The position numbers and the translations under genes are program-made. This document shows, in pieces, positions 12,192-59,735 of a stretch of DNA of 63,894 bases. Each line of letters starts with the position of its first letter. Positions within the stretch are counted from its first letter, which is position 1. This DNA is from an uncultured Gammaproteobacteria bacterium (lineage in GTDB: Bacteria > Patescibacteriota > Patescibacteriia > UBA1558 > 2-01-FULL-52-15), in the NCBI GenBank assembly GCA_964517065.1, contig CAZFBK010000004.1, positions 1 through 63,894 on the forward strand, in the 5' to 3' direction. The notes under the pieces are model-generated. The model was not told the origin of the DNA, made no database searches, and saw nothing but the letters and a program-made list of their open reading frames with translations.

Positions 12192-12248
12192 ACCACCTCA
12201 GGTCTTGGGGACCTGCCCCTCCTTTTAAAAGGAGGGGAACGGGGTGGT
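12192..12248 (+). repeat. 57-nt multi-stem palindromic element, copy 1
   Basis: ACCACCTC-AGGTC..GACCT-CCCCTCCTTTT/AAAAGGAGGGG-GGGGTGGT. It is nearly identical to 19652-19708. Confidence 0.85.
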
Positions 12249-16328: not shown

Positions 16329-19229
16329 ATGAATTTGATACTATATCTTTTTCCGTTTTTAGCAAATATTGTCCTTAGCTTCATTGTTCTTGCCAGAAAT
16401 AGACATGTAAAAGTAAATTTCTACTTTTTTCTGGTAGCTTCTAATATGGCTTTTTGGATTCTTACGTTATATTTTTTTTACTATGCTCACCGAGATGTAG
16501 TTTTATTACTTGGAAGATTAAATTTTGCCTTTGCTGAATTAATTGCTTATTTTGCCTTCTATTTTGGCTATTACTTTCCAAGAACGACGTTTAAGCTTAG
16601 TAAAATTACTAATGTTTGTTTAATAGTATGGTTATCAATTCTTATATATATTACACTTTTTACCAATTTGATTGATGCGAATGAGATTATTGGCGCTGAT
16701 GGAATTACAACCGAATTTGGTCCTTTATATTTTTTATTTATATTTCATTTTTCGATTTTAACCATCTTTTTTATTAGTTTTTTGATTGCAAAATATAAAA
16801 AGGTTGAAAGATTACAGAAATACCAGTTACGATATTTGGCTACAGGAGGATTGCTTTCTCTGTTGATCATTTCGACGACAAATATTTTACTTCCATTTGC
16901 ATTCGGATTTTATGGTGTTCAGGATTTTGGACCATTGGCTACACTTTTTTTTGTTGGCTCTGTGACATATTCAATTGTTAAATATCGTTTGATGAACATC
17001 AGGCTGATATTGACCAAAAGTATCCTCTACTTCCTCATGATCGCTCTAGTTTCCAGCTTCTTTGTCTTTACAACTTTCTTAACAACCGATGTATTATCTT
17101 TCAGTAAAGGGGGAAACATTGGCTTCAGTTTACTGGCATCATTTATTATCGTTGTTTTCATTGAGCCACTGAAGAAATTGCTGTCAAAATTAACAGACGA
17201 TATTTTCTATAAAGGCAAGATTAACTACGACAAGATCCTAACCAAGCTCGGTCTGATCGTAGCCAAAGAAATTGACCTAGAGATCTTATTGACCCAGATC
17301 AGTCAAGGATTATTGAATGAGTTGAAGCTCAAACGGGTGGATCTGATTCTTCATTTGAAGCAGGATTTTTTCACGCTGAATAGCTCCGGCCTGACCAAAA
17401 GTAATATTGCCCCAGAGGTTATCAGCTATTTGCGTGAAAGCAATGAGATTACCATTCTCGAAGAGCTCCGTCGCAAAGCCTACGACATGCCTGAGGGTAT
17501 CGCTCGCAAACAGTTGGAAACTATTGCTACTGCTTTTGAGACGCTCAAATGGGAGATGGTAGTCCCGATTATTATTGAGAAGGAACTTTCTGCTATCATC
17601 GGCTTAGACAGCAAGCTGTCAGGTGATATTTATAATAAAGACGACGTCAATTTCTTCACTATCCTCGCGCCACAGGTTGCTGTCGCGATCGAGAAATCCA
17701 AAGCCTTCGAAGAAGTAGATCATCTGAAAGAAGACCTCCAAGGCAAAGTAGAGCGACGTACGGCCGAGCTGAAGAAAAAGTCACTTGATCTGGAAGCTCG
17801 CAACAAATTCCTGACAACCACTCAGAACATCAGTAACCTGATCAGCCGTTCTTTGGATATCAATCACATCATTCAGATCATTGCGGATAGTATCGCTTCG
17901 GAGCTTGGTTATGTGGGCGGGTTGCTGAGCTTCGTCGGGCCACAAGGCAAATATCTTTATCCAGCCGCTATTACACGCTCACCGGCAGCAGATAAGGCTC
18001 TCGCACTCTTACCGAAACATCCGAGCGAATACAAAACGTCACTGACAACCAAAGAAAATTTGGGAGCGCAGTGTTTTATATCTGGTAGCGCTATCACCAG
18101 TGATAAGTTGTCTGATTTCATCTGCCCACCCGTACCGAAGGAAGCAGTAGACAAGATTCAGCACATGCTGGGCATTCAGACCGTCGTCGGTGTACCAATC
18201 TATACGGAGAATCAGATAATCGGTGTCATCGATTTCATGCTAGCAGCACCGGAGCAGGAAATCACCCAGTTGGATTATGAAATGATGAAAAACTTAGCTG
18301 ATCAGATCGGTATTGTCTATCGTAACGTTAAGCTGTATCAGGAATTGCAGAATACTAATGCCGAGCTCCAGCAAGCCAATGCCCATTTGAAACAATTAGA
18401 CACCGCCAAGTCGGAGTTTCTTTCTATTGCCTCTCACCAACTACGTACTCCTATTTCCGCGGTCAAAGGGTATCTGTCTATGCTATTAGAAGGCGACTTC
18501 GGCAAGTTGCAGCCGGAGCAGACCAAGATTATCACTGATGTTTTCGAAAGTTCCTCGCGTCTAGCACGTTTAATCAATATTTTCTTAAACGTTTCACGTA
18601 TTGAGTCTGGACGGTTCAAGCTGACTTTAGCTCCGACCGATATGAATACTATTGTCGAGGGTGTAGTGAAAGAATTGCAGCAGCAGGCTAAGATTAAAAA
18701 TTTGAAGCTTATTCTAGAATTACCGAAGAAGCCGGTAATGATCAATGTCGATAGTGATAAGATCCGTGAAGTGGTATTGAATCTGATCGATAATGCCATC
18801 AAGTATACGCAGCAGGGGAGCATCACTATATCGCAGGAGCTCCGACCGAATGAGTTCCATTTCCAGACCAAAGATACCGGTATGGGAATCTTACCCGAAG
18901 AAGTCGGCGGTTTGTTCAAGAAATTCGTCCGCGGTACTGGTGTGGCGCAGGTGAATACCCAAGGCTCTGGTCTGGGATTATATATTGCACAACGGGTAGT
19001 AGGAGAGCATGGTGGTAAGATCTGGGTGGAGAGCGAAGGCGTAGGCAAAGGCAGTACTTTCCAATTCACCTTGCCGTTGGAGCCGATCGTCAAGCCAATC
19101 GCGACAGATCAAATGCAACAACAAGAGCCAGCAGCCGAGGCTAAGATAGAGAAGAAAGCAGAAGAGTCAGTAGTAAAACCTGAGAAAGCCGCCAAACCAG
19201 CCAAACCCAAGTTGATCACGAAAAAATAA
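16329..19229 (+). CDS. Sensor histidine kinase (7TM N-terminus, GAF-like middle, HisKA, HATPase_c)
   Basis: It has the H-box SHQLRTPISAV, the N-box DNAIKYT, G1 DTGMGI and G2 GSGLGL. The N-terminus is polytopic and the C-terminal tail is rich in Lys, Ala, Glu and Pro. Confidence 0.9.
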   Translation: MNLILYLFPFLANIVLSFIVLARNRHVKVNFYFFLVASNMAFWILTLYFFYYAHRDVVLLLGRLNFAFAELIAYFAFYFGYYFPRTTFKLSKITNVCLIVWLSILIYITLFTNLIDANEIIGADGITTEFGPLYFLFIFHFSILTIFFISFLIAKYKKVERLQKYQLRYLATGGLLSLLIISTTNILLPFAFGFYGVQDFGPLATLFFVGSVTYSIVKYRLMNIRLILTKSILYFLMIALVSSFFVFTTFLTTDVLSFSKGGNIGFSLLASFIIVVFIEPLKKLLSKLTDDIFYKGKINYDKILTKLGLIVAKEIDLEILLTQISQGLLNELKLKRVDLILHLKQDFFTLNSSGLTKSNIAPEVISYLRESNEITILEELRRKAYDMPEGIARKQLETIATAFETLKWEMVVPIIIEKELSAIIGLDSKLSGDIYNKDDVNFFTILAPQVAVAIEKSKAFEEVDHLKEDLQGKVERRTAELKKKSLDLEARNKFLTTTQNISNLISRSLDINHIIQIIADSIASELGYVGGLLSFVGPQGKYLYPAAITRSPAADKALALLPKHPSEYKTSLTTKENLGAQCFISGSAITSDKLSDFICPPVPKEAVDKIQHMLGIQTVVGVPIYTENQIIGVIDFMLAAPEQEITQLDYEMMKNLADQIGIVYRNVKLYQELQNTNAELQQANAHLKQLDTAKSEFLSIASHQLRTPISAVKGYLSMLLEGDFGKLQPEQTKIITDVFESSSRLARLINIFLNVSRIESGRFKLTLAPTDMNTIVEGVVKELQQQAKIKNLKLILELPKKPVMINVDSDKIREVVLNLIDNAIKYTQQGSITISQELRPNEFHFQTKDTGMGILPEEVGGLFKKFVRGTGVAQVNTQGSGLGLYIAQRVVGEHGGKIWVESEGVGKGSTFQFTLPLEPIVKPIATDQMQQQEPAAEAKIEKKAEESVVKPEKAAKPAKPKLITKK

Positions 19230-19237
19230 ATCTAGAC

Positions 19238-19270
19238 AAAAACCTACTCGTTAAGATCAAGTAGGTTTTT
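19238..19270. terminator. Bidirectional hairpin between the kinase and the DUF559 gene
   Basis: AAAAACCTACT pairs with AGTAGGTTTTT (11 bp). It overlaps the last codons of the minus-strand DUF559 ORF. Confidence 0.55.
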
Positions 19271-19627
19271 GTCATCTAAATAATAAATAATAGTATCTAG
19301 TACACCTCCTATATTCTCATAGACATCCGTATTAGTAAATCGCAAGACTCTGAGACCAAAATCCTCGATAAATTTCTGACGACGTTCGTCTCGCTCTTCA
19401 GCTCCATCCTGAAAATGACTATCACCGTCGAGTTCAATTACCAACTTAGCCTTAGGACAATAGAAGTCAACTACGTAACGACCAATACCGTGTTGTCTAC
19501 GAAACTTATAGCCAGATAATCTTTTACCTTGAAGGTACGACCAAACAATAACTTCTGCATCCGGCATATCTCTGCGCAAATATTGGCGGAGTTTTTTAAA
19601 TTCTTGTCTATTATAGAGCAGGCTCAT
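19244..19627 (-). CDS. DUF559 (Vsr-like endonuclease fold) protein
   Basis: It has the RYVVDFYCPKAKLVIELDGDSH and RVLRFTN motifs typical of DUF559. Confidence 0.85.
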   Translation of the reverse strand: MSLLYNRQEFKKLRQYLRRDMPDAEVIVWSYLQGKRLSGYKFRRQHGIGRYVVDFYCPKAKLVIELDGDSHFQDGAEERDERRQKFIEDFGLRVLRFTNTDVYENIGGVLDTIIYYLDDKNLLDLNE

Positions 19628-19630
19628 AAA

Positions 19631-19720
19631 ACAGGGAGATAGTTAATTAGGACCACCCCAGGTCTTGAGGACCTGCCCCTCCTTTTAAAAGGAGGGGAAC
19701 GGGGTGGTCGATCTCCCTGT
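19631..19720 (+). repeat. Multi-stem palindromic element, copy 2, with an extra outer inverted repeat
   Basis: The core at 19652-19708 is near-identical to 12192-12248. It is bracketed by ACAGGGAGAT (19631-19640) and ATCTCCCTGT (19711-19720), and it abuts the DUF559 start codon. Confidence 0.85.
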
Positions 19721-19814
19721 TTATTACTTCCACTATGCCAGAGATTAAGATATTTGAAAAGCTTCAAGAGATCTTGATTTTCTGCGTAATTTTGATAAAA
19801 TAAGCGTATTAAAT

Positions 19815-19935
19815 AGCCGTCCTTTATCATACAGCCGTCGCATTTGTACTCAAATGTGACTCAAAAATAAAAATAGCTACCTAGTTAGCCAAAAACAAAC
19901 AGCCGTCGGTTTCAAGAGCAGACAGAATAAGAGTG
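19815..19935 (+). promoter_or_regulatory. AGCCGTC-box intergenic module, copy 2
   Basis: AGCCGTC occurs at 19815, 19833 and 19901. The spacings of 18 and 68 nt compare with 18 and 67 nt in copy 1. The distance to the downstream ATG (19955) is also the same. Confidence 0.5.
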
Positions 19936-19954
19936 TATAACTAAGTATCTATTT

Positions 19955-20305
19955 ATGACTAAGTATAAAATATCATTATTTCGAGTTAGATCAGAGTATC
20001 GAGAGATAATCTGCGGTCTGGGTATTCACCGAGCTTCATCAATTCGAGAAGCGGTATCGTTACTTGATGCTGATCCCTTGATTCGGGAGACACGAGTGTT
20101 ATTTACGATAGATAACGAATTATTTCTGGGCATGTGGACTCCTGTTGATATTCTCGGTAGGCCGGTATTACTACTACTTGAAGGTTCTCAAGCGAAAGTT
20201 TTGCAACGAGCGTTGGTATCAAGTTCATATTCGTTGGAACGATTGTTACGGGAGGAGTCTGGCAGTATGGGTGTAAGGTGGGAACAGCAGGAAGCGGAGG
20301 GTTAA
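19955..20305 (+). CDS. Hypothetical protein
   Basis: 116-aa ORF immediately downstream of box module copy 2, with no recognisable motif. Confidence 0.45.
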   Translation: MTKYKISLFRVRSEYREIICGLGIHRASSIREAVSLLDADPLIRETRVLFTIDNELFLGMWTPVDILGRPVLLLLEGSQAKVLQRALVSSSYSLERLLREESGSMGVRWEQQEAEG

Positions 20306-20340
20306 GGTTATTTAAAAAATGACGATTGTGCTTGTCTGTT

Positions 20341-20367
20341 CGCTCCCGGTCTCGCGAGATGGGAGCG
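20341..20367 (+). other. Hairpin presenting the palindrome TCTCGCGAGA in its loop (left copy)
   Basis: The stem is CGCTCCC/GGGAGCG. The loop carries TCTCGCGAGA at 20350-20359. Confidence 0.6.
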
Positions 20368-20428
20368 ATCAGCTAAGCATGGTGTTTAGCTGAAACTCCT
20401 CTTTATGGGGAGAAAGTGAGTTCTTTGT

Positions 20429-20548
20429 ATGTTGAACATGGGCGGTACCAACTCGGGTGGTCACGGCGGCGGCAATGGTGGTTCCGGCGGTCAGAGCGGT
20501 GGTCACGGTGGTTCCTCGGGTGGCGGCACCGGAACGCGCGGTCAGTAG
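20429..20548 (+). CDS. Glycine-rich 39-aa micro-ORF (MLNMGGTNSGGHGGGNGGSGGQSGGHGGSSGGGTGTRGQ)
   Basis: ATG at 20429 and TAG at 20546-20548. A purine-rich GGGGAGAAAGTGAG lies upstream, and a perfect 14-bp hairpin follows. It is too short to appear in the ORF track. Confidence 0.4.
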   Translation: MLNMGGTNSGGHGGGNGGSGGQSGGHGGSSGGGTGTRGQ

Positions 20549-20573
20549 TACCCCAGTTCGTTCATGAACGAAG

Positions 20574-20605
20574 GCCGGACTTCTTACGAAAGTAAGAAGT
20601 CCGGC
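20574..20605 (+). terminator. Perfect 14-bp hairpin after the micro-ORF
   Basis: GCCGGACTTCTTAC, GAAA loop, GTAAGAAGTCCGGC. No strong T-run follows, so it may be an attenuator or processing site rather than a full terminator. Confidence 0.5.
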
Positions 20606-20617
20606 ACAAAGTTATAT

Positions 20618-21892
20618 ATGAGGTTTAACCATAAAATTATCAGCGATACTTTATCATCAGGTGACACGCTTGTTACTATTGTTGCTCCTGAAATTGCTAT
20701 CGCCAGTATTGGTATCTTTTTTGAAGCTGGTGCACGCTTTGATCCTATTGGTAAAGAGGGCTTAGCTCATATGTTCGAACATCTTTTGACCAAGGAAACA
20801 GAGAAATTTCACCATCAAATCGACCGTTTACGTGCTATAGAATCTCTCGGTATCTATGCTAATGCCTTCACAGGGTATGAGACAGCTTTTTATTATCACC
20901 TCCAACCTACAGACCAAATTACACCATCACTAGAGCTTTTATTAGATGGTGTTTTTGGATCAACTGTCAGTGAAGCGATGCTAAACAAAGAACGAGCTAT
21001 TATTTTGGAGGAAGAAAGTCGTAATCGACAAGATCCATTCGCCTATATGTGGAGACTTAGTCATCAAGCATTATGGTCTTCTGATACACTCGGTAGAGAT
21101 TTGATGGGCTCATCAGATAGTCTCAAATCTATTTCGATTGAGGATGTACAGGCATTTAAAAAGAAATATTATGACTCAGCGCCTGTTACGTTCGTCCTCA
21201 TCAGTGACAAGTATTCGGATTTACCCAAAACAATAATTGACCGTTATCGACAGCAGCAGAAAGCTGATGTACATAAAATTCAAAGACGGGTTTCTGTTAT
21301 CAACACTAATCCTACTGCCTTACAGTTCAAAGCAGATCATAGAGACACAGAGTCTGTTACCATCGGTGTTCATTTTAAAACAGCTGAGGCAGAGTCCTTA
21401 GATGTCATAGGGTTGGATTTATTGGTTCATATTTTAGCCAACCATTGGGTTTCAATCTTGAATCAAAAATTACGCCTTGAAAACGATATTACTTATTGGG
21501 TTGAGGGAAGTAGTATATATTATTCTGATAGCGGATCTTTGAGCTTAATGTTTAGTTGCCAGAAAGATAAGTCGAGCCGAGCAATTTCTTTAGTATCACA
21601 GGCGGTTAAGCAACTTCGAGACAGTTTGATTGATGATGAGCTTTTAAATACATACAAACAGGCAATGCTGGGCGATACGCTGCGACGATTTACCAACCCA
21701 TTCGCCTGTTTGGAATGGTATGGTAGCGAAACGTATAAGAAGACGATTCTATCTATCGCCGATTATTGTCATCAGATTGAGAAAATTACAGCTCAGGAAG
21801 TCCAGACAATAGCAATAAAGTATTTGCAAAAAGAATCTAGTGCAGTAACCAGTATTGGACCGACAGATGATACATTGAATTTAGATATCTAG
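20618..21892 (+). CDS. M16 (pitrilysin/insulinase) family zinc peptidase
   Basis: It has the HxxEH motif in GLAHMFEHLL. I prefer the ATG at 20618 (MRFNHK) because the track start at 20564 lies inside the upstream hairpin. Confidence 0.85.
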   Translation: MRFNHKIISDTLSSGDTLVTIVAPEIAIASIGIFFEAGARFDPIGKEGLAHMFEHLLTKETEKFHHQIDRLRAIESLGIYANAFTGYETAFYYHLQPTDQITPSLELLLDGVFGSTVSEAMLNKERAIILEEESRNRQDPFAYMWRLSHQALWSSDTLGRDLMGSSDSLKSISIEDVQAFKKKYYDSAPVTFVLISDKYSDLPKTIIDRYRQQQKADVHKIQRRVSVINTNPTALQFKADHRDTESVTIGVHFKTAEAESLDVIGLDLLVHILANHWVSILNQKLRLENDITYWVEGSSIYYSDSGSLSLMFSCQKDKSSRAISLVSQAVKQLRDSLIDDELLNTYKQAMLGDTLRRFTNPFACLEWYGSETYKKTILSIADYCHQIEKITAQEVQTIAIKYLQKESSAVTSIGPTDDTLNLDI

Positions 21893-21900
21893 TTTGTCCT

Positions 21901-21939
21901 GCTACTTTGCCCCAGTCTCGCGAGATCGGGGAAAGTAGC
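21901..21939 (+). other. Hairpin presenting the palindrome TCTCGCGAGA in its loop (right copy)
   Basis: The stem is GCTACTTTgCCCC/GGGGAAAGTAGC. The loop carries TCTCGCGAGA at 21916-21925. Confidence 0.6.
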
Positions 21940-22073
21940 TGGACAAGGTGTCGAGCGAAGAGTACATTCTAACCGGAGCAGAATATGACCGAGTATAAGT
22001 TCCCGTGGCCCTATAAGGGCTAGCTAAGGGTAGGGAGCGGAGAAATCTTCTCCCTACACATAATAAGGTTTAT

Positions 22074-22280
22074 ATGAAAGACGAAACAATAGACAAAATT
22101 CTTGACTGGATACTTAACCACATCATTATGGTGCCATTTATTATCGTTATTTGGTTAATGTTGTTTCATCATTTTTCAGGTTTACCTTCGGCTTTGGTCA
22201 CCTTTGGAGACAAGAAGCCTCCAACCGCCCAATCAGCTCCAGAGCCTTACATCTTCCGAGCTGTAGAGCCTATTAAATAA
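22074..22280 (+). CDS. Small membrane protein
   Basis: 68 aa with one hydrophobic helix. It ends 7 nt before the RHS gene. Confidence 0.4.
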   Translation: MKDETIDKILDWILNHIIMVPFIIVIWLMLFHHFSGLPSALVTFGDKKPPTAQSAPEPYIFRAVEPIK

Positions 22281-22287
22281 ATTAATT

Positions 22288-25200
22288 ATGAACCCTCTTA
22301 TTAACCAATCACTTACTTCTATGAAACGCAGCAATCAGACTCTGCTTCGTGTCAGTATTTCACTGTTCGTTGTCTCGTTGATCGTTATGCCTTTGGCGCC
22401 TGTATGGGCGAGGGAGGCTACTACAGCTGAGCCGGCTGTAGTAGCAAATGATTCTGCCCCGACTGTGGCAGAAGTTGCCGCTCCAGCAGTGGATACGACT
22501 GAATCAGTGAAAACAACTGACGGTCAACAAAATCCTGGTGATGAAATAAATACAGGCGGCAGCGAGCAACCAAATCCTGGTGCTGCTATCTTTTCAGCTA
22601 AACAACCAAATAAATTTGAAATTGGAAAAAATGGACAAGCGCAGGTTGTGGAATCAACCGGCGCTTTTAGCTATTCCTACCCTCTAGAGATTCCCAAAGG
22701 CAGAAATGGTTTACAACCATCATTAGCCTTAACCTATAATAGTCAGCGCAATAATAAAGATTCGCTATATGGTTTGGGTTGGGATCTTGATATTCCTTAT
22801 GTTGAGAGATCAGCACGGCAGGGAACAGAAAAGAGATACACAAATTTTGATTTCACTTTAAATTTTCCCGGTGGGGGAAATTTAGTGCCTCTCTCTGTTG
22901 ATGTTAACGGGTATGGTACCTATGGTTCTGAAGTTGAAAGCCAATTTAATAAAATTGAATGGCTCAGTAGTAAAACGTGGAAGATTACGGACAAGAGTGG
23001 TATTGTCTATACCTTTGGTACGGACGCAGCTAGTCGTCAGGATGATCCGAATGACAGTACACATATATATCGTTGGATGCTGCAGGAGGTGCGTGATACC
23101 AACGATAATTTTGTTCGTTACGAATATTTGAAAGATTCCGGCGCGATCTATCCGAAAGCTATCTATTATACGGGGAGTGGATCAACTGATGGTCTCTACA
23201 AGGTTATCTTTGATCCCATATACTCTGGACCAATAGCCACACGTCCCGATATTACAACTAGTAACGATGCGGGCTTTGGTATTACTACCAAATACACGAT
23301 TAATTCTATACAAGTGCTCGTCGGTGGAGTCGGAAAGAAGAAGTATGATGTAGAAACGATACAGGGAGAGGCTGGTAAGACTGTGGTCAGTAGGATTAAA
23401 GAAGCGGGTAGAAATGGCACCACCTGGGACTACTTACCAGCCACAGATTTTGAATATGGTACGTCATCAAAACAATGGACCACGGATCCTAATTACCAAG
23501 TGCCTTTTGAATTTGAATTCTATGGTCAGCAAAATAGCCAGCAATACAATATCTTTGCTTTTCTCTCTATGGACGTCAATGGGGATGGGTTAACTGATCT
23601 GTTGTACAGTAGTCAAGATTGTCCTTGGGAAATTGACTTAAGGACCTATATCAATAATGGTAACAACGGGTGGTCTACGACAACTGATTGGCAGTTGCCT
23701 TTCGACTTTCCTCTACGGGGAAGAACTTGCACCGGTTATAAGTGGAATTATCAAAACCGCTTTATGGTTGCCGATCTCAACGGTGATTTACGAGATGACT
23801 TCGTTGTTTCATTTGTAGTTTCCGAGGTTGAAACAAAAAAAGTATATATAAGCAATGGCGAGAATGGCTGGACCTTAGATCCAAACTGGACCATACCATT
23901 TAATTTTGGGGACTTCTATTATGACGGAGGGACAATTAAACTTTATAGCCCGAAATATAATCTTTTTGATGTGAATGGTGATAAGCGAGCTGATTTTGTC
24001 GAAGCTTATTATAATGATGACACCCATCAATTCATTCATAATGTTTATATTAATAATGGTGTAAATGGATGGACTGTAGATCCGAGCTGGACCGTACCTA
24101 TTGATTTTGCAATGTATGGACAGGGTAATGTTAAAGATTATAGTGCTAACTATCGCTTAGGAGATGTTAATGGTGATGGCTTAACAGATATTATGTATTC
24201 ACGTTATGAGCAGACTATTGATTCTGATGTGCGTCAAGTATTTATCAATAATGGAAAAAATGGTTGGACTCTTGATCCTAGTTGGCAGATTCCATTTCTT
24301 TTCTCTCAGTACTCCATTGGAGGCTCAGAAACGGATTTCGGATTTAGATTTAAAATGTTAGATATTAATGGAGACGGTTTGAGCGATTTTATTGAATCAT
24401 ATCATAGTTATTGGGCAGGTGATTCTGATATTAAAAATGTCTACATCAATAATGGTCATGGTGAATGGGTAATTGATAGTGCCTATAATATCCCTTTTGT
24501 ATTCGGGGTCTATGAAAGTAATAATAGTACATCTGATCATAATCCACGTTATCGCATGTTTGACGCTGTTGGCAATTTGAGTGTGAATTATCTAAGTTCC
24601 TATGTTGATGAATATCGTAATGATCAGGGCAACTCTGTGAAAGTTCTAGATCAAGCTCCCAGTTGGAATAAATTAAAGAGCATTAAACGTCTGAATCAAA
24701 CAATTATTAGTGCCGACTATGCAGCTTCGGCTCAACTCAAAGATCAAAATCAAAACCTGTTGAATCCTAAAGCCGTTGTGAATGTGCCGGTGGTTTCAAC
24801 TGTCACCTATAATGACGGTCTGGGTCATCAGCAGACTAGTAATTATAGTTATGAAGCTGGCAGCTATTATATAGGTAATTCTCTTAAGCAGAATAAATTC
24901 ACCGGTTTTGGCAAAGTGACGAAGACAGAGAGCGATAATAAGATTACAACGTATTATCATCAAGGTGGTGGTCTCGATGGTGCTGCTCTCGGTGAATATC
25001 AGGATAGCTATGCTAAGATTGGACAATCATTCCGCCAAGAGATTCGTAATGCTTCAGGACAATTATTACAACAAAGCGTTACCAAGGTTGACTCTGCGAC
25101 TTTAGCTGATGGCAGACAATTCCCAACTGTCGCACGTACCACTCAAACAATATTTGGTGCTACGACAAAATCACAGGCTACCCAGTATCAGTATGATGGT

Positions 25201-28200
25201 GTTGGTAATGTTTTACAGGAACAGAATTTAGGGTTAGTGACGGCCAATACTAATACTGGTGATGTCACTGATACTCTAATGGGCGACGAGAAAACCACCA
25301 CCTATGCCTATGCTCTGAATACCGGCAAGCATATCCTCGGCGTACCAAAGACGAAGACTATCAGTAACACGGGGGAAACTAAATCTCAAGATTTCTACTA
25401 TGACACCTATCCTGAGCTCGGAGCGCTGGATAAAGTAAATCTGACCAAAGAAGATTTGAAAGTTAATGTTGTTGATATCGAGACTACGTATAACAATTAC
25501 GGTTTACCTCTGACCAAGAAAGATCCGAAAGATACCACAGCAGTTAGTCTGACGTACGATGTGAATAATCTCTTCGTCACGACCACCACTGATGCTTTGT
25601 CTCGTAAGACAGTGACCAAATACGATCCGGCTACTGGACAACTATTGTATTCTCGCGATCCGAACGGCTATCAAGAAAAAAATACTTATGATGCTTTTGG
25701 CCGATTGACCAAGAAAGAAGTTTCTGATGCCACCAATGTTACTACCTTGAATACCAAGCAGGAAATAACCTATCAGGATACAACTTTCCCGAATTACACT
25801 GAAGTCAAAGATTATTTCAAAGCTGGTAGTTACACTACGTCACGGGAATACTACGATGGTCTTGGTCGGGTGATTCAGAGTGATAAGTCTGATGTCACCG
25901 GACAGTATATTGTTAGTTATAAGCAATACGATAGCCAAGGCAGAGTAGCGAAAGAAACTCTGCCGGCTTTCACCAGTACGATCAGCTACAACCCCGCACC
26001 AAGCTTCAGTACAGCCAAGACGTATACCTATGACGCTTTGGACCGCGTACTGACAGAGGTTACGCCGACCGGTACGACCAGCTATGCGTATGACGGTTTG
26101 GTGACTACTATCACCGACCCTCGTAATAAAGTGAAGAAATTGACTAAAGATGCTTTTGATAACTTAGTAAAAGTTGAAGAGTTTAATAGTGGCTCCACCT
26201 ATACGACGGTCTACGAATATACACTGACCAATAAGCTGAAGAAGATCACCGACGCGCTCGGTAATATCCGCACCTTTACCTATGATGCGCTGGATAATCT
26301 AACGCAGCAGGATATGGTGCATAAGTCTTCTGTCGCCAACCCAGCTCACTGGACCTATACCTACGACAAAAATGGCAACGTCCTAAGTAAGGCTGATCCA
26401 AAGTCACAAACAACAAACTATAGCTATGACGCGCTCAATCGTTTATTGCAGGAGAATTTTACCGGCAAGACCGGTATTGAGTACGCGCTGACCTATGATC
26501 AAGGTAGTGGACAGCTGGGTCGTCTGACGCACGTTGTGGGCAGTGACGGTTTAATTACTGACTACACCTATGACAAGCAAGGTAAACCCTTGACCGTCAC
26601 GCGTACTATCGATGGCACCAGCTATGTCTTGACCTATACCTACGATTGGAACGGTAATGTCACGTCTATTACGTATCCGGAAGGAGAGCGGGTGGATTAT
26701 CTTTACAATTCTGCCGGACAGATCAATCAAGTGAATAAAGTGAAGAATGGTGTGACTACCGTTTTAGCTCAAGGTGTGACCTATTCACCACTTGGTCAGA
26801 TTACCCATTTGCAGCGTGGTAATAATGTCACGACTGATTATACCTATGATGCCAATCAGAGTTATCGTCTGACGCGTCTACGCACAGTGAGCGGTTCTGT
26901 AGTGTTGCAGGATATCGCCTATACCTATGATGCGAATGGTAACATCTTGACACTCATTGATACTTCACAGACTGCACTAGCAAAGAGCGTGACCTATATC
27001 TATGACGATCTTAATCGTCTGACATCAGCTGCGGTCACTGGCTCTGGCTCTGGTGCCAACTATACCCAAACCTACAGCTATGACGCTACGGGTAATATGC
27101 TGACGAACTCCGCTGTCGGTACCTATGCCTATACCTTAGACAATCCACAACAGGCTCGTACTATGGGCGCTACCACCTATACCTATGATGGTAATGGCAA
27201 CGTCAATTATATAAATTCTGATTTCCAGAATTACGACTGGCGCGATCGCATGAACTATAGTCGTTTGGCTGGCTCAGCTGATCATATGGAGTATACCTAT
27301 GATCATACCAACCAACGGGTGAAGAAACATTCAGTTGTCACACCTCCGCCACCTCCAGGTGATTGTGAGAATCATCCAGACCAGTGCCCTGATCCAATCT
27401 TCGGTATTCCGGTAGGTATCACACCTCCGAATCCGAAGTTACCGACTCCGATTGAAGTGGTTCTTCCAGAACCAGAAGTTGGAAGTTTACGGTTACCCGC
27501 CTCGCCAGAGACGAGTCGTGGCGGGGAAGTTGAAGATCCAGCGACAGTGGCTTCTTCTACACCGGCGGTCTCTATTCAGACACTTTCCTCTACATCAACA
27601 GAATCTTTAACCTTAGAGCCGACGGAGATACTACCGGTAGGAGTTTTCGAGATATCTACGACTACGCCCCAATTTGCCTCCGATTCTAACTCCGATCTCC
27701 CAACTCCCAACTTCGAACCTGCTACTTCGACTGATCCTCTTGTTTCACCTGATCCCGTGATAACACCAACGTCAACTGAATCTAGCTTCGAACTCCCAAC
27801 TCCCAACTTCTCCGATGCTACAACCACAGACGCCAATCTCTCATTAGAAAACCCAACTCCCGATACTGCGCCTTCAACTGGCGACGTCATTACCTACTAC
27901 ATCGACAAATACTACGAAAAGCAGTGGAATGGCGTAGCTCGTAATCACTACTTCTTAGGCAACATTAACCTCGCTGTCGATGTTTTGTCCGGTACGAATA
28001 CTGGTGTATACTATGTATTGTCCGATCATCTTGGATCGAGTTCTCTGACAACTAACCCTTTTGGCAACATGATAGACCGTACGGAGTATGCTCCTTATGG
28101 CTCTATTGTAGCTACTGCTGCTACTCAGAATATTGGCAATAACTATAAGTTTACGGGGAAAGAAGCTGACGCAGAGAACAACCTTCAGTACTTTGGTGCT

Positions 28201-29001
28201 AGATATTACGATAACCGTGTTGGCAAATTTACTGCTATAGATCCTTATGGACTGCAAGTCAGTAAAGTAATAGGTATGCTATCCGACCCTCAGAGTCTGA
28301 ATGGCTATGTATATTCTAGAAATAACCCCGTTATATTAGTTGACCCTGATGGTAGAGACTGGCATACATTCGGCCAAGGCTTAGCTAGTCCCTTTGTCTA
28401 TGCATATCAGCATCCGTTAGAAACAGTAGCGACAGTTGCTGTGGTTGTGGCTGTTGCTTCAGTAGCTCCTGTTGCAGTTGCAGTTCTTGGCACGGTTGCT
28501 GGAAGTGTTGCTATCGGTACCGCTCTGGGGAACGCTGCTAATGCTCCCGATGCTAATACGAGAGACTATTATCTTGGAGCAGCTGTAAGTAATACAGCGT
28601 TGACCGCGGTTGCGGTTAAGGGCGCAGGAACACTTTCAACACCAAAACCAGTATCGGCAAGTACGGGTATTGCTGATGATGCCTTGGTTGTACGGGGTGG
28701 CGGTTTATCAAATCAGGCGGCTAATAGATTCAGAATTGAACCAAGTCGAACTCCGGGTGTAATTGGTTATTCCGCTCAGTGTAGTAATAGTTGTACTGAT
28801 ATTAGTCAATTGGGACAATTAGGAAAAAATCTTAAAAACCCCGAACTTTCAGTTGTAAAAGCCAAAGACATAAGAGCTTTTAAAGGAGATGTGATACCAA
28901 CACCGGGACTAGGCGACCACGTTACTATTACTGGATTAGATGGTAATCTTTCCAGTAAATTACCATGGGAGGCATTTAAGAATCCTAATCCACGTAAATA
29001 A
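22288..29001 (+). CDS. Giant secreted RHS/YD-repeat polymorphic toxin, fused TcB/TcC-like architecture
   Basis: 2237 aa. The N-terminus has a signal/anchor sequence. An SpvB-like block follows (GAFSYSYPLEIPKGRNGLQPSLALTYNS). Six FG-GAP-like blades of about 65 aa each carry D(V/I/L)NGDGLxD. Many YD repeats follow (YTYDALDR, YxYDxxGN). The RHS core carries YKFTGKE...YFGARYYD and DPDG at 28342-28353. Confidence 0.9.
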   Translation: MNPLINQSLTSMKRSNQTLLRVSISLFVVSLIVMPLAPVWAREATTAEPAVVANDSAPTVAEVAAPAVDTTESVKTTDGQQNPGDEINTGGSEQPNPGAAIFSAKQPNKFEIGKNGQAQVVESTGAFSYSYPLEIPKGRNGLQPSLALTYNSQRNNKDSLYGLGWDLDIPYVERSARQGTEKRYTNFDFTLNFPGGGNLVPLSVDVNGYGTYGSEVESQFNKIEWLSSKTWKITDKSGIVYTFGTDAASRQDDPNDSTHIYRWMLQEVRDTNDNFVRYEYLKDSGAIYPKAIYYTGSGSTDGLYKVIFDPIYSGPIATRPDITTSNDAGFGITTKYTINSIQVLVGGVGKKKYDVETIQGEAGKTVVSRIKEAGRNGTTWDYLPATDFEYGTSSKQWTTDPNYQVPFEFEFYGQQNSQQYNIFAFLSMDVNGDGLTDLLYSSQDCPWEIDLRTYINNGNNGWSTTTDWQLPFDFPLRGRTCTGYKWNYQNRFMVADLNGDLRDDFVVSFVVSEVETKKVYISNGENGWTLDPNWTIPFNFGDFYYDGGTIKLYSPKYNLFDVNGDKRADFVEAYYNDDTHQFIHNVYINNGVNGWTVDPSWTVPIDFAMYGQGNVKDYSANYRLGDVNGDGLTDIMYSRYEQTIDSDVRQVFINNGKNGWTLDPSWQIPFLFSQYSIGGSETDFGFRFKMLDINGDGLSDFIESYHSYWAGDSDIKNVYINNGHGEWVIDSAYNIPFVFGVYESNNSTSDHNPRYRMFDAVGNLSVNYLSSYVDEYRNDQGNSVKVLDQAPSWNKLKSIKRLNQTIISADYAASAQLKDQNQNLLNPKAVVNVPVVSTVTYNDGLGHQQTSNYSYEAGSYYIGNSLKQNKFTGFGKVTKTESDNKITTYYHQGGGLDGAALGEYQDSYAKIGQSFRQEIRNASGQLLQQSVTKVDSATLADGRQFPTVARTTQTIFGATTKSQATQYQYDGVGNVLQEQNLGLVTANTNTGDVTDTLMGDEKTTTYAYALNTGKHILGVPKTKTISNTGETKSQDFYYDTYPELGALDKVNLTKEDLKVNVVDIETTYNNYGLPLTKKDPKDTTAVSLTYDVNNLFVTTTTDALSRKTVTKYDPATGQLLYSRDPNGYQEKNTYDAFGRLTKKEVSDATNVTTLNTKQEITYQDTTFPNYTEVKDYFKAGSYTTSREYYDGLGRVIQSDKSDVTGQYIVSYKQYDSQGRVAKETLPAFTSTISYNPAPSFSTAKTYTYDALDRVLTEVTPTGTTSYAYDGLVTTITDPRNKVKKLTKDAFDNLVKVEEFNSGSTYTTVYEYTLTNKLKKITDALGNIRTFTYDALDNLTQQDMVHKSSVANPAHWTYTYDKNGNVLSKADPKSQTTNYSYDALNRLLQENFTGKTGIEYALTYDQGSGQLGRLTHVVGSDGLITDYTYDKQGKPLTVTRTIDGTSYVLTYTYDWNGNVTSITYPEGERVDYLYNSAGQINQVNKVKNGVTTVLAQGVTYSPLGQITHLQRGNNVTTDYTYDANQSYRLTRLRTVSGSVVLQDIAYTYDANGNILTLIDTSQTALAKSVTYIYDDLNRLTSAAVTGSGSGANYTQTYSYDATGNMLTNSAVGTYAYTLDNPQQARTMGATTYTYDGNGNVNYINSDFQNYDWRDRMNYSRLAGSADHMEYTYDHTNQRVKKHSVVTPPPPPGDCENHPDQCPDPIFGIPVGITPPNPKLPTPIEVVLPEPEVGSLRLPASPETSRGGEVEDPATVASSTPAVSIQTLSSTSTESLTLEPTEILPVGVFEISTTTPQFASDSNSDLPTPNFEPATSTDPLVSPDPVITPTSTESSFELPTPNFSDATTTDANLSLENPTPDTAPSTGDVITYYIDKYYEKQWNGVARNHYFLGNINLAVDVLSGTNTGVYYVLSDHLGSSSLTTNPFGNMIDRTEYAPYGSIVATAATQNIGNNYKFTGKEADAENNLQYFGARYYDNRVGKFTAIDPYGLQVSKVIGMLSDPQSLNGYVYSRNNPVILVDPDGRDWHTFGQGLASPFVYAYQHPLETVATVAVVVAVASVAPVAVAVLGTVAGSVAIGTALGNAANAPDANTRDYYLGAAVSNTALTAVAVKGAGTLSTPKPVSASTGIADDALVVRGGGLSNQAANRFRIEPSRTPGVIGYSAQCSNSCTDISQLGQLGKNLKNPELSVVKAKDIRAFKGDVIPTPGLGDHVTITGLDGNLSSKLPWEAFKNPNPRK

Positions 29002-29003
29002 TT

Positions 29004-29276
29004 ATGGATATTTCAAACACAGAACCAATTTGGGTCGACTTTAATAACTCTGATGAAGATAGAGCTGTGCGATTATTTCTCCCGTTGAAGACTATGGCGT
29101 TAAAAGATATGGATCTTGAATTGGTTGAAGGATTGAACGTTTGGATTACAGATGGTGAAATAGAGGCCATCGGTACAACCACTTTTCGAGATGGTATTTG
29201 GGTGGCAGTATTAGACGAAGATTCGTTAAAATCCCTTGATAAGAATTCTCCTTATCATATTGATAACCAGAAATAG
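29004..29276 (+). CDS. Candidate cognate immunity protein
   Basis: 90-aa acidic ORF starting 2 nt after the toxin stop. The call rests on position only. Confidence 0.45.
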   Translation: MDISNTEPIWVDFNNSDEDRAVRLFLPLKTMALKDMDLELVEGLNVWITDGEIEAIGTTTFRDGIWVAVLDEDSLKSLDKNSPYHIDNQK

Positions 29277-33263: not shown

Positions 33264-34532
33264 ATGGCTGCCACCATCAAACGGATTACTGCCAATGAAA
33301 TCTTAGACTCACGAGGTAACCCGACGGTTGAAGTTTTGGTTACCTTAGACAACGGCATTGAAGCTAGTGCTTCGGTGCCCAGTGGAGCTTCGACGGGAAC
33401 GTTCGAAGCTTTTGAGTTACGTGATAATGATGAGCGCCGTTATAATGGTAAAGGTGTTTTGCAAGCTTGTCAGAATGTCAAAGGAGAGATTCAATCGGCT
33501 TTGGAAGGTAAAGGTATCACTGAGCAACGAGATATTGATCAGACGATGATCAAGCTGGATGGAACCGAGAATAAATCCCGTCTGGGAGCCAACGCTATCT
33601 TGGGAGTGTCACTGGCCTGCGCTCGGGCAGCTGCCTTATCAGAAAATCTGCCGTTATATCGTTACATCGGTCAGCTCTATGGTGCGAGTCAATTTCAGCT
33701 GCCCATACCGCTGATCAATATTATTAACGGCGGCTTGCATGCCAGTACAAACCTTAATATTCAGGAGTTCTGGGTGATCCCGACTCAAGACAGCAGCTTT
33801 CAGGAACGTTTGCGCTGCGGCAGCGAAGTGTTTCAACAGCTCGGTACTATTCTGCGCAAAGATTCGCGTGATACTGATCTTGGTAATGAAGGTGGCTATG
33901 CACCGAATCTAGACAATCATCGGCAGGCTTTCGACTATGTCTTGCGCGCTATCGAGCAGGCAGGATATAAACCAGCTGATAATTGTTTTTTAGGCTTTGA
34001 CGCCGGCGCTTCAGTTTTGTTTGACCCGAAGACCAGTCTCTATGAATTGAAGCTGGAGCAGAGTCACTATACCAGTGCAGAATTTCAGAAATATATGATT
34101 CAGTTGTGGCGTGATTATCCCATCAATGTCTGTGAAGATCCGCTGGCCGAAGAAGATTGGGACGGGTGGAAAGCGCTGACAGTCGAGATGAGGAAAGATT
34201 TTGCCAAAAGTATCCTGATCGGTGATGATTTATTTGTTACCAATAGTCAGCGTCTGCAAAAAGGCATTACTATGGGAGCAGCCAACGCTATCCTGATCAA
34301 ACCCAACCAGATCGGCAGTCTGACAGAAACTTTGGAGACTATTCGCTTAGCTAAGAAGTCCGGCTATGCTACGGCAATATCTCATCGCAGCGGTGAGACG
34401 ATTGATTCGTTCATCGCTGATTTGTCAGTAGCAGTTGCCTCTGAATATATCAAAACCGGCTCCGTCGCTCGCGGTGAGCGTTCAGCCAAGTACAACCGAT
34501 TATTAGCTATTGAACGTGAATTACATGGATAA
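33264..34532 (+). CDS. eno: Enolase
   Basis: 422 aa with ILDSRGNPTVEV, the SHRSGET motif and IKPNQIGSLTE. Confidence 0.95.
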   Translation: MAATIKRITANEILDSRGNPTVEVLVTLDNGIEASASVPSGASTGTFEAFELRDNDERRYNGKGVLQACQNVKGEIQSALEGKGITEQRDIDQTMIKLDGTENKSRLGANAILGVSLACARAAALSENLPLYRYIGQLYGASQFQLPIPLINIINGGLHASTNLNIQEFWVIPTQDSSFQERLRCGSEVFQQLGTILRKDSRDTDLGNEGGYAPNLDNHRQAFDYVLRAIEQAGYKPADNCFLGFDAGASVLFDPKTSLYELKLEQSHYTSAEFQKYMIQLWRDYPINVCEDPLAEEDWDGWKALTVEMRKDFAKSILIGDDLFVTNSQRLQKGITMGAANAILIKPNQIGSLTETLETIRLAKKSGYATAISHRSGETIDSFIADLSVAVASEYIKTGSVARGERSAKYNRLLAIERELHG

Positions 34533-43338: not shown

Positions 43339-43452
43339 GCCATCAAGCGTAATATTTGTCAATATTTGGCTAAGATTAGGTAAAAGTTGATAGTTGAAAG
43401 TTGTAAGTTAGAAAGGGATTCCTGACAACTTTCAACTTACAACTGATAATAA

Positions 43453-43480
43453 TTGACTTTATCTAAAATTCTGGTATACT
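43453..43480 (+). promoter_or_regulatory. Promoter of the rplJ-rplL operon
   Basis: TTGACT (43453-43458), a 16-nt spacer ending in TGg, then TATACT (43475-43480). Confidence 0.5.
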
Positions 43481-43630: not shown

Positions 43631-43746
43631 TTTAAAATGCAGTACTTAGTAACTAGTAATCAGTAATTAGTCCAAAACTTTACCGATTCCTAATTACTAA
43701 TTTCCAATTTCTAGTTACTAATCCCTAATTACTAATTACTACTCTA

Positions 43747-59551: not shown

Positions 59552-59735
59552 AATGTTAGAGATTAGTAATTAAGTGACTAGTAATTAGGAGCTTCTAGTT
59601 ACCAGTTACTAATTACAAATTACTCCTCCCAGACTATCCCATATTTGACTTTTTTTCAAGAGCGTGGCTTGACCAAAGCACGAAAAGTCCGTATTTATTG
59701 ATTTTTACCAGCAGACTTGCTACTATCAATGAACT

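Follow-up and report, generated by a model that had tools for sequence, protein, structure and literature searches.

The peptide gene, the hairpin and the peptidase gene

The whole stretch of DNA that was analysed (63,894 nt, hereafter the window) carries on its + strand a short glycine-rich open reading frame (ORF), a hairpin and a peptidase gene, with one further hairpin element at either end:

20322..20400, + strand: hairpin element H1, stem 20329-20347/20361-20379, apex GTCTCGCGAGAT at 20349-20360
20407..20416, + strand: putative Shine-Dalgarno-like purine-rich stretch, GGGGAGAAAG, from reading of the sequence
20429..20548, + strand: glycine-rich micro-protein gene, 39 aa, from ORF reading and homologue comparison
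20574-20587/20592-20605, + strand: perfect 14-bp stem with a GAAA loop, from an inverted-repeat search, -25.6 kcal/mol
20618..21892, + strand: M16B (insulinase-family) zinc metallopeptidase, 424 aa, from Pfam, active-site residues and a structural model
21888..21966, + strand: hairpin element H2, paralogue of H1, stem 21894-21912/21928-21946, apex GTCTCGCGAGAT at 21915-21926

The 39-codon ORF, the perfect 14-bp hairpin behind it and an M16 peptidase with an intact HxxEH motif had been described in the first-pass annotation, and all three were found again, the translation of the ORF included. That no heterocyclase or other tailoring enzyme is encoded here was likewise borne out by the neighbouring genes, which are a histidine kinase, a DUF559 protein, a 116-aa unknown ORF and an RHS toxin.

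The product of ORF 20429-20548 (+), MLNMGGTNSGGHGGGNGGSGGQSGGHGGSSGGGTGTRGQ, consists of a short variable N-terminus (MLNMGGTN) and a conserved core in which a decapeptide (GGSGGxxGGx) is imperfectly repeated about three times and which closes with TRGQ-stop. Glycine takes up 20 of the 40 codons of the ORF, and the peptide contains a single Arg and no more than one Lys. The micro-protein is wholly hydrophilic and is predicted by AlphaFold to be disordered (pLDDT 52.6), with no hydrophobic or helical binding element. Its putative ribosome-binding stretch, GGGGAGAAAG, lies 12-16 nt upstream of ATG 20429, while relatives have GAGGAG or AGGAG placed 6-9 nt ahead of the ATG.

The peptidase most likely starts at ATG 20618 and not at 20564. 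Pfam domains Peptidase_M16 (7e-18) and M16_C (2e-12) were both identified, giving the two-domain half clam-shell of an enzyme of about 400-450 aa. The active site is complete (H51, E54, H55, E125, E132, R286, Y293), with the inverted HxxEH motif reading H51-M-F-E54-H55 and the distal Glu ligand expected about 76 residues downstream of it. These residues (H51-M-F-E54-H55, E125 and E132) are invariant across the 43 members of the clade to which the enzyme belongs, as are the catalytic and substrate-binding residues in general. Ligand spacing agrees with the H46..H50-E126 arrangement of BH2405 (PMC12731061). The AlphaFold model (pLDDT 92.7) was matched by Foldseek to MPP-beta and B. halodurans BH2405 (1hr6 and 3hdi) with TM scores of 0.86-0.88. 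The enzyme sits in a distinct and sharply bounded Patescibacteria clade, whose 43 clusters all reach 331 bits or more, against at most 216 for the next one.

The 14-bp hairpin between the two genes lies 25 nt past the micro-ORF stop and 12 nt ahead of the M16 start. A strong hairpin (-13 to -34 kcal/mol) is found 3' of the micro-ORF stop in all 17 distinct loci, beginning 2-43 nt beyond it, and the stem in the window is the counterpart of the terminator hairpin that follows every family member. At least four T within the 8 nt after the stem were counted in 10 of these loci, all of them among the 16 equivalent hairpins in relatives. In the window, H1, H2 and the hairpin at 20574-20605 have the G+C-rich stem of an intrinsic terminator, starting 2-25 nt past a stop codon, but all three lack a T-run, for which reason their function as terminators is assumed. 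A strong terminator between the micro-ORF and the peptidase gene could equally mean that the two are independent transcription units.

Conservation of the micro-ORF

About 20 homologues of the micro-ORF were identified in Patescibacteria/Parcubacteria DNA (loci L001, L043, L060, L074, L086, L088, L089, L091, L092, L093, L094, L096, L097, L099, L100, L101, L104 and L106). A first genome-wide DNA pattern search had returned mostly chance matches in G+C-rich genomes, with only L043, L060, L074 and L086 being genuine. Among 1.84 billion representative proteins the family has only 17 matches. Profile searches of Pfam, NCBIfam, PADLOC and PDB with the micro-protein gave zero matches, as did a scan of viral contigs with the peptide pattern, and nothing relevant was found in the literature on the core motif or on Gly-rich small proteins or RiPPs in candidate-phyla-radiation (CPR) bacteria. 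Members of the family are almost always missed or mis-extended by gene callers. RNA-seq runs were also searched, and none contained the window locus.

The core is nearly invariant and follows the consensus GSGGHGxGNxGSGGQ[SR]GGxGGS[ST]GGG[TS]GxRG[KQSR]-stop. In an alignment of 10 micro-proteins, 24 columns of the 30-aa core are invariant, and the 4-15 aa of the N-terminus are variable. Cys is absent from every core sequence, as are Glu and Tyr from the core, and in most members G or GG immediately precedes it. Mean pairwise difference per site between homologues is 0.126 and 0.138 at codon positions 1 and 2 and 0.62 at position 3, and differing codon pairs are synonymous in 774 cases versus 203 non-synonymous. 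Serine codons alternate between TCN and AGY, and through the many synonymous changes conservation extends to residues other than Gly (H, N, Q, S, T, R) and to the exact C-terminus. Frame, stop position and Shine-Dalgarno site are likewise kept across loci whose DNA has diverged, and peptide identity is 67-85% between loci where the M16 proteins are only 27-39% identical.

This pattern bears on whether the G+C-rich stretch codes for a protein at all. A structured non-coding RNA, or an ORF that arose by chance, would be in keeping with the local G+C peak (0.69 versus 0.43 for the window), with folding better than that of shuffled sequence (z = -4.4) and with the frequent omission of the ORF by gene callers. 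It is contradicted by the third-position variation, the synonymous excess and the switches of Ser codon family, as well as by the retention of frame, stop and Shine-Dalgarno site in diverged DNA. Rfam also gave nothing relevant, whether for the whole window at gathering thresholds or for 19600-22300 at permissive ones, and we give a non-coding origin hardly any credence. The first-pass annotation had named a lack of amino-acid conservation in relatives as grounds for rejecting its proposal; since the micro-ORF is conserved at that level, the proposal withstood this test. Comparison of the homologues thus shows selection on the micro-ORF at the amino-acid level: it is a genuine small-protein gene of CPR bacteria, strongly conserved and not annotated until now. 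Substrates and secreted peptides are usually far less conserved than its core, a difference that hints at a further conserved partner.

Association with peptidases and possible functions

The association of the micro-ORF with peptidases was counted from both sides. Among the 17 distinct loci on the peptide side, 10 have an adjacent peptidase of M16, C39-like or ClpP-like type. An M16 gene is directly downstream on the same strand in five of the 17 (the window, L001, L093, L099 and L100), the L001 enzyme being only 39% identical to that of the window. A C39-like cysteine peptidase takes this position in three; the L074 protein matches Peptidase_C39 at 1e-10, and those of L043 and L088 are DUF3335-like and homologous to each other. 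In two loci a ClpP-like peptidase adjoins the micro-ORF, again with both proteins homologous, and this gene is convergent in L094 and divergent in L091, so co-transcription is not general. In the remaining seven of the 17, no neighbour is recognisable as a peptidase: three (L060, L086/L087 and L089) have a conserved, uncharacterised protein of 115 aa next to the micro-ORF, and four (L092, L096, L097 and L101) have unrelated or unknown neighbours.

On the peptidase side, three members of the M16 clade (P0037, P0035 and P0063) were picked without reference to the peptide, and all three have an upstream micro-ORF and hairpin, one of the micro-ORFs being divergent. The most divergent M16 is paired with the most divergent peptide. 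Taking all examined loci of the M16 clade together, micro-ORF and hairpin are directly upstream in 8 of 8, which, along with the C39-like and ClpP-like cases elsewhere, upholds the earlier suggestion of a dedicated protease. The layout of ORF, hairpin and M16 gene recurs in L107 with a micro-ORF of different composition. The analysis thus shows a micro-ORF linked to peptidases, a hairpin architecture that is conserved, and a peptidase with an intact active site. Neither in the window nor in the other loci examined was a tailoring enzyme, ABC exporter or immunity gene found beside the peptide gene. Of note, L106 has a radical-SAM gene (264-971) about 1.8 kb upstream of the micro-ORF; it stands side by side with an NRDD gene and its product is therefore probably the activase of that protein.

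M16 enzymes act on peptides of 30-70 residues, and little is known of the physiological substrates of the prokaryotic M16B enzymes, which have mostly been assayed on non-physiological ones alone (PMC12731061). In various systems, ribosomal peptide precursors are processed by proteases of several families, C39 and M16 among them (PMC10885120). As the conserved micro-ORF sits next to the peptidase gene, its product is a likely natural substrate of a bacterial M16B enzyme, and we put at about even the chance that the locus is a two-gene module whose micro-protein is the dedicated endogenous substrate of the peptidase. The first gene would supply a disordered Gly-rich micro-protein from its own ribosome-binding site, with its own strong 3' hairpin, and the second a cytoplasmic metallopeptidase of the M16B type, whose members close like a clam-shell on unstructured peptides of roughly 30-70 residues. 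The small gene may be abundantly transcribed with most transcripts ending at the hairpin, and lower amounts of peptidase would then come from some read-through or from a weak promoter inside the hairpin tail. We infer cleavage of the peptide, its site and the role of the product along these lines: the peptidase would either trim the variable N-terminal extension and so release the invariant core, or set the lifetime of the peptide. In other Patescibacteria lineages an unrelated C39-like cysteine or ClpP-like serine peptidase may have taken over this role. The three unrelated peptidase classes share only the hydrolysis of unstructured peptides, so a shared substrate would fit them better than a shared inhibitor or cofactor.

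Stated in full, the proposal is that the nearly invariant Gly-rich CPR micro-protein, with its approximately three GGSGGxxGGx repeats and RG-X end, serves a co-evolving M16B 'peptidasome' as its dedicated natural substrate, with C39-like or ClpP-like replacements elsewhere, and that the two make up a minimal maturation or turnover system without tailoring enzymes, serving a conserved cellular function rather than producing an antibiotic. In this wider form we advance it tentatively, at somewhat below even confidence. The locus offers a whole clade of M16B peptidases a concrete, genetically linked candidate substrate. CPR bacteria have small genomes and much unknown biology, and the micro-protein adds to them a family that is more conserved than its partner enzyme. 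In placing one peptide gene beside three unrelated peptidase classes, nature has run a clean experiment of its own, and it points to proteolysis as the step that matters.

The strongest competitor of a substrate is a micro-protein that regulates, adapts or inhibits proteolysis, or that is an independent housekeeping protein acting on conserved machinery and found near peptidases through co-regulation or shared physiology. The far greater conservation of the core than of the partner enzyme, as expected for contact with a conserved partner, would suit this, as would the seven loci that lack an adjacent peptidase and the micro-ORF's own terminator. A single inhibitor or adaptor is, on the other hand, difficult to reconcile with metallo-, cysteine- and serine-type peptidases of unrelated folds. 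The fully disordered prediction and the strict link to the M16 clade also speak against such a function, which we regard as rather unlikely. The micro-ORF might also be a regulatory leader peptide, in which stalling on Gly codons at scarce glycyl-tRNA would block the terminator and turn on the peptidase for amino-acid scavenging. Half of the codons encode Gly, a terminator-like hairpin follows closely in all loci, peptidases are often downstream and the L107 layout is kept despite the different composition of its micro-ORF, all of which resembles trpL, hisL and thrL, where a micro-ORF rich in the codons of one amino acid precedes a terminator and a regulated gene. A leader that counts codons would nevertheless have no need of conserved non-Gly residues and C-terminus, and unlike in those systems no sign of an antiterminator emerged: by a coarse test, the upstream 90 nt of 8 of 10 loci paired with the 5' arm of the terminator no more favourably than with shuffled versions of it, and in the other two the advantage was marginal. 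Nor is the downstream gene always co-oriented, the next gene being convergent in L094, L096, L097 and L101. Attenuation of this kind appears very improbable.

The first-pass annotation had likened the locus to microcin- or RiPP-type ones, microcin B17 included. On such a reading the peptide would be secreted, as an antimicrobial or a signal akin to RiPPs, microcins or class II bacteriocins, and the adjacent protease would remove its leader. In its favour, precursors and their enzymes are usually arranged in this way, with a short peptide gene and its hairpin ahead of the gene for the protease, a dedicated protease is present by both counts (10 of 17 and 3 of 3), C39 peptidases cleave after Gly-Gly, and pairs of M16 enzymes process subtilosin and class III lanthipeptides (PMC10885120, PMC12731061). 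Yet the comparison lends the analogy no support. The pattern of a conserved leader and variable core is reversed, with a variable 'leader' of 4-15 aa and a nearly invariant 'core', tailoring, export and immunity genes are missing from beside the peptide gene at every locus, and reading of the M16 and C39-like proteins revealed no signal peptide or transporter domain; the peptide itself is wholly hydrophilic. The lack of Cys excludes a microcin B17-type product, and unlike the thiazole-oxazole microcins, with their Cys/Ser/Thr-rich core and McbBCD-type synthetase, the locus encodes no synthetase. We therefore consider a secreted product of this type quite improbable.

For the substrate reading that we prefer, several known systems offer partial parallels. 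SboA with AlbE/AlbF (subtilosin A) and the class III lanthipeptides with PttP1/PttP2 share with the window an M16B-type zinc peptidase that is encoded or correlated with a short ribosomal peptide substrate, and in such systems the substrate is enclosed in the M16 clam-shell (PMC10885120, PMC12731061). They differ in needing tailoring enzymes (the radical-SAM AlbA and LanKC), of which the window locus has none, and in being heterodimeric M16 pairs where the window has one M16B gene; the window peptide, moreover, is Gly-rich without Cys and is conserved in its core, not in a leader. PqqA with PqqF/PqqG is similar in that a very small conserved peptide gene precedes a hairpin and is linked to the M16 protease by which the product is cut out, and a conserved peptide sequence suits a cofactor-type product better than an antibiotic. 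However, PqqB, PqqC, PqqD and PqqE are absent, the core lacks the Glu-X3-Tyr motif of PqqA, and the window M16 reaches only a weak 21 bits against the NCBIfam PqqF model (cutoff 320). Double-glycine leaders and their C39 peptidases (class II bacteriocins, microcins, PCAT) recall the C39-like genes directly downstream in three lineages and the G or GG ahead of the core. The C39-like proteins of the family are, in contrast, stand-alone and without an ABC transporter, its 4-15 aa leaders do not show the hydrophobic pattern at -4/-7/-12, and the core is invariant and hydrophilic.

In Firmicutes, the Prp cysteine protease is encoded beside its small substrate bL27 and removes a short N-terminal extension from it, freeing a highly conserved, Gly-rich and functional N-terminus. 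The window resembles this arrangement in having a putative dedicated protease that adjoins the gene of a small candidate substrate, but Prp belongs to another protease family and acts on a known ribosomal protein, while the window locus bears no sign of ribosome association.

Three further ideas were dropped. An exposed N-terminal Gly-Gly-His site for copper or nickel does not agree with the residue ahead of GGH, which varies and can be Pro; for a ubiquitin- or Pup-like C-terminal tag there are no ligase genes; and what likeness there is to the release-factor GGQ loop or to the glycine-rich loop in alpha-MPP is a low-complexity resemblance only.

The flanking hairpins H1 and H2

Two hairpins flanking the genes had been reported at 20341-20367 and 21901-21939. 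Both are real, but these extents are too short, as the arms of H1 and H2 are each 19 nt long. The identical 12-mer GTCTCGCGAGAT with its 10-bp palindrome is indeed found in both loops. In contrast, the description of the stems as unrelated does not hold, since an ungapped alignment of 79 nt is 57% identical, and 46 nt within it are 72% identical. In about six pairs of the stem, both bases differ between H1 and H2 with pairing kept. Alignable stems, the same geometry and these two-sided changes indicate that H1 and H2 go back to a single element of about 80 nt, specific to this genome, and have since diverged. H1 lies 24 nt past the stop codon of ORF 19955-20305 and H2 lies 2 nt past the M16 stop codon, each thus just 3' of the stop of a + strand gene, and most likely they act as terminator or transcript-stabilising hairpins. 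The short 3' tail of H1 (GGTGT..AGC) can alternatively fold into a small hairpin.

Exactly two copies of the 10-mer palindrome are present in the 63.9 kb, in the same orientation, versus 0.056 expected, and 98 other loci have none. A covariance model, R1, was built from H1 and H2; the 98 bits that H1 scores against it therefore follow by construction. Searching with R1 revealed no third copy in the window, with filters off, and none in 22 related loci, and the two matches to the hairpin apex among viral contigs are chance ones inside G+C-rich coding sequence. Being absent from all relatives examined, H1 and H2 are not part of the conserved module, and the idea that they bracket it as components of the system finds no support.

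Should they nonetheless be functional boundaries, they might delimit a mobile cassette, or a dimeric protein or a factor recognising the loop might bind the pair of them and control the module. In favour of this, the 12-mer apex is identical, against about 50% identity over the rest of the element; for homologues at that level, a run of this kind has an estimated chance of about 0.02. The apex is also a perfect 10-bp palindrome, well in excess of expectation. The L001 module is bracketed as well, by a 24-nt direct repeat at 867-890 and 2594-2617. A bracketing repeat is, however, absent in five other M16-type loci, the element is confined to its two copies in the window, no transposase or integrase is nearby, other repeated intergenic palindromes also occur in the genome, and the position of both hairpins directly after stop codons is that of terminators. 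We therefore think it unlikely that they mark boundaries.

Synteny of L104 with the window is limited to the upstream kinase, which has the same domain architecture and is 31% identical in the kinase domain, so insertion boundaries are not definable from this locus. Metagenome contigs over 19000-23500 contained no joints or deletions suggesting excision of the module. Comparison of the metagenome contigs also brought to light another palindrome, present in multiple copies, at about 19624-19704.

The micro-ORF and its homologues

The window is A+T-rich (G+C 43%), and its G+C content rises sharply to 0.69 at 20450-20549, a peak that coincides with a 39-codon ORF. The succession of micro-ORF, hairpin and M16 peptidase described in the first-pass annotation was confirmed:

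20429-20548, + strand: glycine-rich micro-ORF encoding MLNMGGTNSGGHGGGNGGSGGQSGGHGGSSGGGTGTRGQ
20574-20605: perfect 14-bp stem with a GAAA loop, 25 nt past the micro-ORF stop, -25.6 kcal/mol
20618, + strand: likely ATG of the M16 gene, 12 nt beyond the 14-bp hairpin

The resulting 424-aa protein matches Peptidase_M16 and Peptidase_M16_C (Pfam); the alternative listed ORF start at 20564 would put the hairpin within the coding region. Glycine is encoded by GGT or GGC at 19 of 20 positions in the micro-ORF, compared with 69% for the same two codons in the other genes of the window.

The protein database holds a single close homologue of the M16 enzyme (39% identity), encoded on L001, a metagenome contig of 2.7 kb. 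Directly upstream of that gene we found MSKGGSGGHGGGNAGSGGQSGGHGGSSGGGSGTRGK followed by a stop and a hairpin; the gene caller had skipped this micro-ORF and annotated an M16 gene that extends too far, over the micro-ORF. Searches with degenerate DNA patterns of the conserved core identified further members, after filtering, in Parcubacteria, Taylorbacteria and other Patescibacteria genomes (loci L043, L060, L074, L086) and in metagenomes (L088, L089, L091, L092). Profile searching yielded 13 called proteins, of which most carry a spurious extension at the N-terminus. The core consensus is GSGGHGxGNxGSGGQ[SR]GGxGGS[ST]GGG[TS]GxRG[KQSR]-stop, built of about three imperfect 10-codon repeats and preceded by 4-15 variable residues. 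GAGGAG or AGGAG is clear 6-9 nt ahead of the ATG in the relatives, and in 17/17 loci the micro-ORF is followed by a strong stem-loop of -13 to -34 kcal/mol that begins 2-43 nt past the stop, with at least 4 T within 8 nt after the stem in 10 of them.

Among 10 genes, the mean pairwise difference per site at codon positions 1/2/3 is 0.126/0.138/0.62, differing codon pairs are synonymous in 774 cases and non-synonymous in 203, and at conserved Ser positions the codons switch from TCN to AGY or back. Judged by these substitution patterns, the micro-ORF is a genuine gene, conserved and under amino-acid-level selection, so the question raised in the first-pass annotation, whether relatives conserve the peptide itself, is answered in the affirmative. 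Structure prediction gives a disordered micro-protein lacking secondary structure (pLDDT 52.6). It has no match in Pfam, NCBIfam, PADLOC, PDB or Rfam, literature searches on it found nothing, and 1.84 billion representative proteins, searched exhaustively with a profile, yielded only 17 matches. The family is therefore essentially unannotated and appears to be undescribed so far.

The micro-ORF at L099 652-849 carries an extra C in a C-run (ACCCCGGGG), which shifts the frame just ahead of the usual RGK-stop, so that the ORF stays open as far as the M16 start; this reflects either a pseudogene or an error in the assembly.

Genes adjoining the micro-ORF

Neighbouring genes were tallied at 17 distinct loci reached from the peptide side. 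An M16 peptidase is directly downstream in five (window, L001, L093, L099, L100) and a C39-like cysteine peptidase in three: L074, whose protein matches Peptidase_C39 at 1e-10, and L043 and L088, whose DUF3335-like proteins are 33% identical to each other. Two loci have an adjacent ClpP-like peptidase, convergent in L094 and divergent in L091, the two proteins being homologous. A conserved 115-aa protein of unknown function is adjacent in three (L060, L086/L087, L089), and other or unknown genes in the remaining four (L092, L096, L097, L101).

The ~115-aa protein (motif KNKYPLVxVxWRDSNIYRxQDS...NIDQRCSxVIP) stands in the peptidase position, 3' of the micro-protein gene, in Taylorbacteria-like genomes, and has no match in Pfam, NCBIfam or PADLOC. 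Its genes are:

L060: reverse strand
L086/L087: about 902-1255
L089: 591-935

Approached from the peptidase, a profile built from five M16 sequences retrieved 43 clusters at 331 bits or more, the next scoring at most 216 bits, a drop that marks a distinct M16 clade. H51, E54, H55, E125, E132, R286 and Y293 are invariant within it. Three members were chosen without regard to the peptide, and a micro-ORF and hairpin lie immediately upstream of M16 in all three. The upstream peptides are MMFFRNRSGGGSGSSGGHGGSSGGHGSGNSGSGGQRGGGSGSSGGGTGNRGK in L104 and MQKGLFGGKGGHGNGNAGSGGQRGGGSGSTGGGTGTRGK in L106, while L107, the most divergent M16, is preceded by a divergent basic 42-aa micro-ORF (MGNKSSQKRSRPVPGTGYKGQRNVNKASGSRQKGTSGKRIKK, about 2752-2880) and a terminator; this peptide may be a highly diverged homologue of the Gly-rich one. 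Together with the five M16 loci from the peptide side, the pairing is found in 8/8 clade loci examined, counting the divergent micro-ORF of L107. Peptide identity is 67-85% while the partner enzymes share just 27-39%. The predicted M16 model is confident (pLDDT 92.7) and aligns structurally with MPP-beta and with homodimeric BH2405 from B. halodurans (TM 0.86-0.88); sequence matches were found alongside these fold matches.

In L106, a Peptidase_C39_2 protein and a YgjP-like (metallohydrolase-type) protein are encoded just upstream of the micro-protein gene (1014-2654), in addition to the downstream M16, peptidase-type genes clustering round the locus. A histidine kinase of unusual 7TM-GAF-HisKA-HATPase architecture, which may be a conserved neighbour, is upstream of the module in the window (16329-19229) and in L103/L104 (1-2246).

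Possible function of the module

The first-pass annotation likened the locus to a RiPP or microcin precursor with its leader peptidase. This fails on several defining features, as tailoring, export and immunity genes are absent, the peptide lacks Cys, and a variable N-terminus with an invariant core is the reverse of the expected pattern. The many Gly codons and the terminator make an attenuation leader peptide attractive, but that reading is contradicted by the retention of non-Gly residues at the amino-acid level, by the convergent downstream genes in several loci, and by the absence of any apparent antiterminator complementarity.

The proposed link between peptide and peptidase itself holds, given the consistent M16 pairing and the C39-like or ClpP-like peptidases elsewhere. 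The module is taken to be a micro-protein and a peptidase that putatively cleaves it. With three unrelated catalytic classes at one position, the simplest account is non-orthologous replacement of an enzyme with a shared substrate. M16 enzymes are suited to unstructured peptides of about 30-70 residues (PMC12731061), and C39 enzymes cut after Gly-Gly (PMC10885120). With a hairpin between the two genes the peptide:enzyme ratio would be high, and cleavage could either mature the peptide by removing its variable N-terminus or limit its lifetime. A core conserved to this extreme points to a cellular rather than an antibiotic role. The micro-protein is a testable native-substrate candidate for a clade of bacterial M16B peptidases.

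Outer hairpins and other elements of the window

Two hairpin elements, H1 and H2, flank the module:

20322-20400: H1, starting 24 nt past the stop of the + strand ORF 19955-20305
21888-21966: H2, starting 2 nt past the stop of the + strand M16 gene

Both are real and share the identical 12-mer apex GTCTCGCGAGAT; each has 19-nt arms, larger than first reported. Their stems, earlier described as unrelated, are in fact related: ungapped alignment gives 57% identity (72% over 46 nt), arm lengths, register and 3' tail are common to both, and at about six stem pairs both partners differ. The 10-bp palindrome within the apex occurs twice against 0.056 expected, and none of 98 other loci contains it; TCGCGA shows no depletion as a hexamer (13 copies against 13.8 expected). 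A covariance model of H1/H2 found no further copy in the window or in 22 related loci. The alignment, the paired stem changes, the lack of copies elsewhere and the positions 3' of stops lead us to regard H1 and H2 as a diverged pair derived from one 3'-end hairpin specific to this genome, which has no U-run and probably terminates or stabilises transcripts. Both lie outside the conserved peptide-peptidase module, and the suggestion that they bracket it as part of the unit is not supported. Conservation is higher in the apex than in the stems, and a loop- or palindrome-binding factor is possible.

In L001, a 24-nt direct repeat (CTAATTTTCTCCTCYAAATACCAC, one mismatch) at 867-890 and 2594-2617 brackets the module; it is unrelated in sequence to H1/H2 and, on this short contig, may be either a local or a genome-wide repeat. 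Other repeated intergenic palindromes occur in the source genome. A nested palindrome of ~90 nt (19624-19722; AACAGGGAGAT...CCCCTCCTTTTAAAAGGAGGGG...ATCTCCCTGTT) is present in multiple copies in the source metagenome, with a depth of ~107 against 11 for its flanks and several contigs ending within it; its 22-nt core has a second window copy at 12216-12237, and the whole resembles an intergenic repeat of the REP or MITE type. Long imperfect A+T-rich intergenic hairpins at 43383-43460, 43641-43719, 59573-59624 and 60913-60988 are built of the short repeated words AGTTGAAAGTTG, ACTAGTAAT and GAAATTAGAAAG.

Directly downstream of the module, behind a structured G+C-rich 127-nt leader (21947-22073), is a polymorphic-toxin-type gene (22074-29276; 2237 aa with SpvB, FG-GAP and RHS repeats), with a 68-aa ORF ahead of it and a 90-aa ORF after it that may be an immunity gene. 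Cofactor-independent phosphoglycerate mutase (iPGM_N and Metalloenzyme domains) is encoded twice at 34510-37745, by overlapping genes in tandem.
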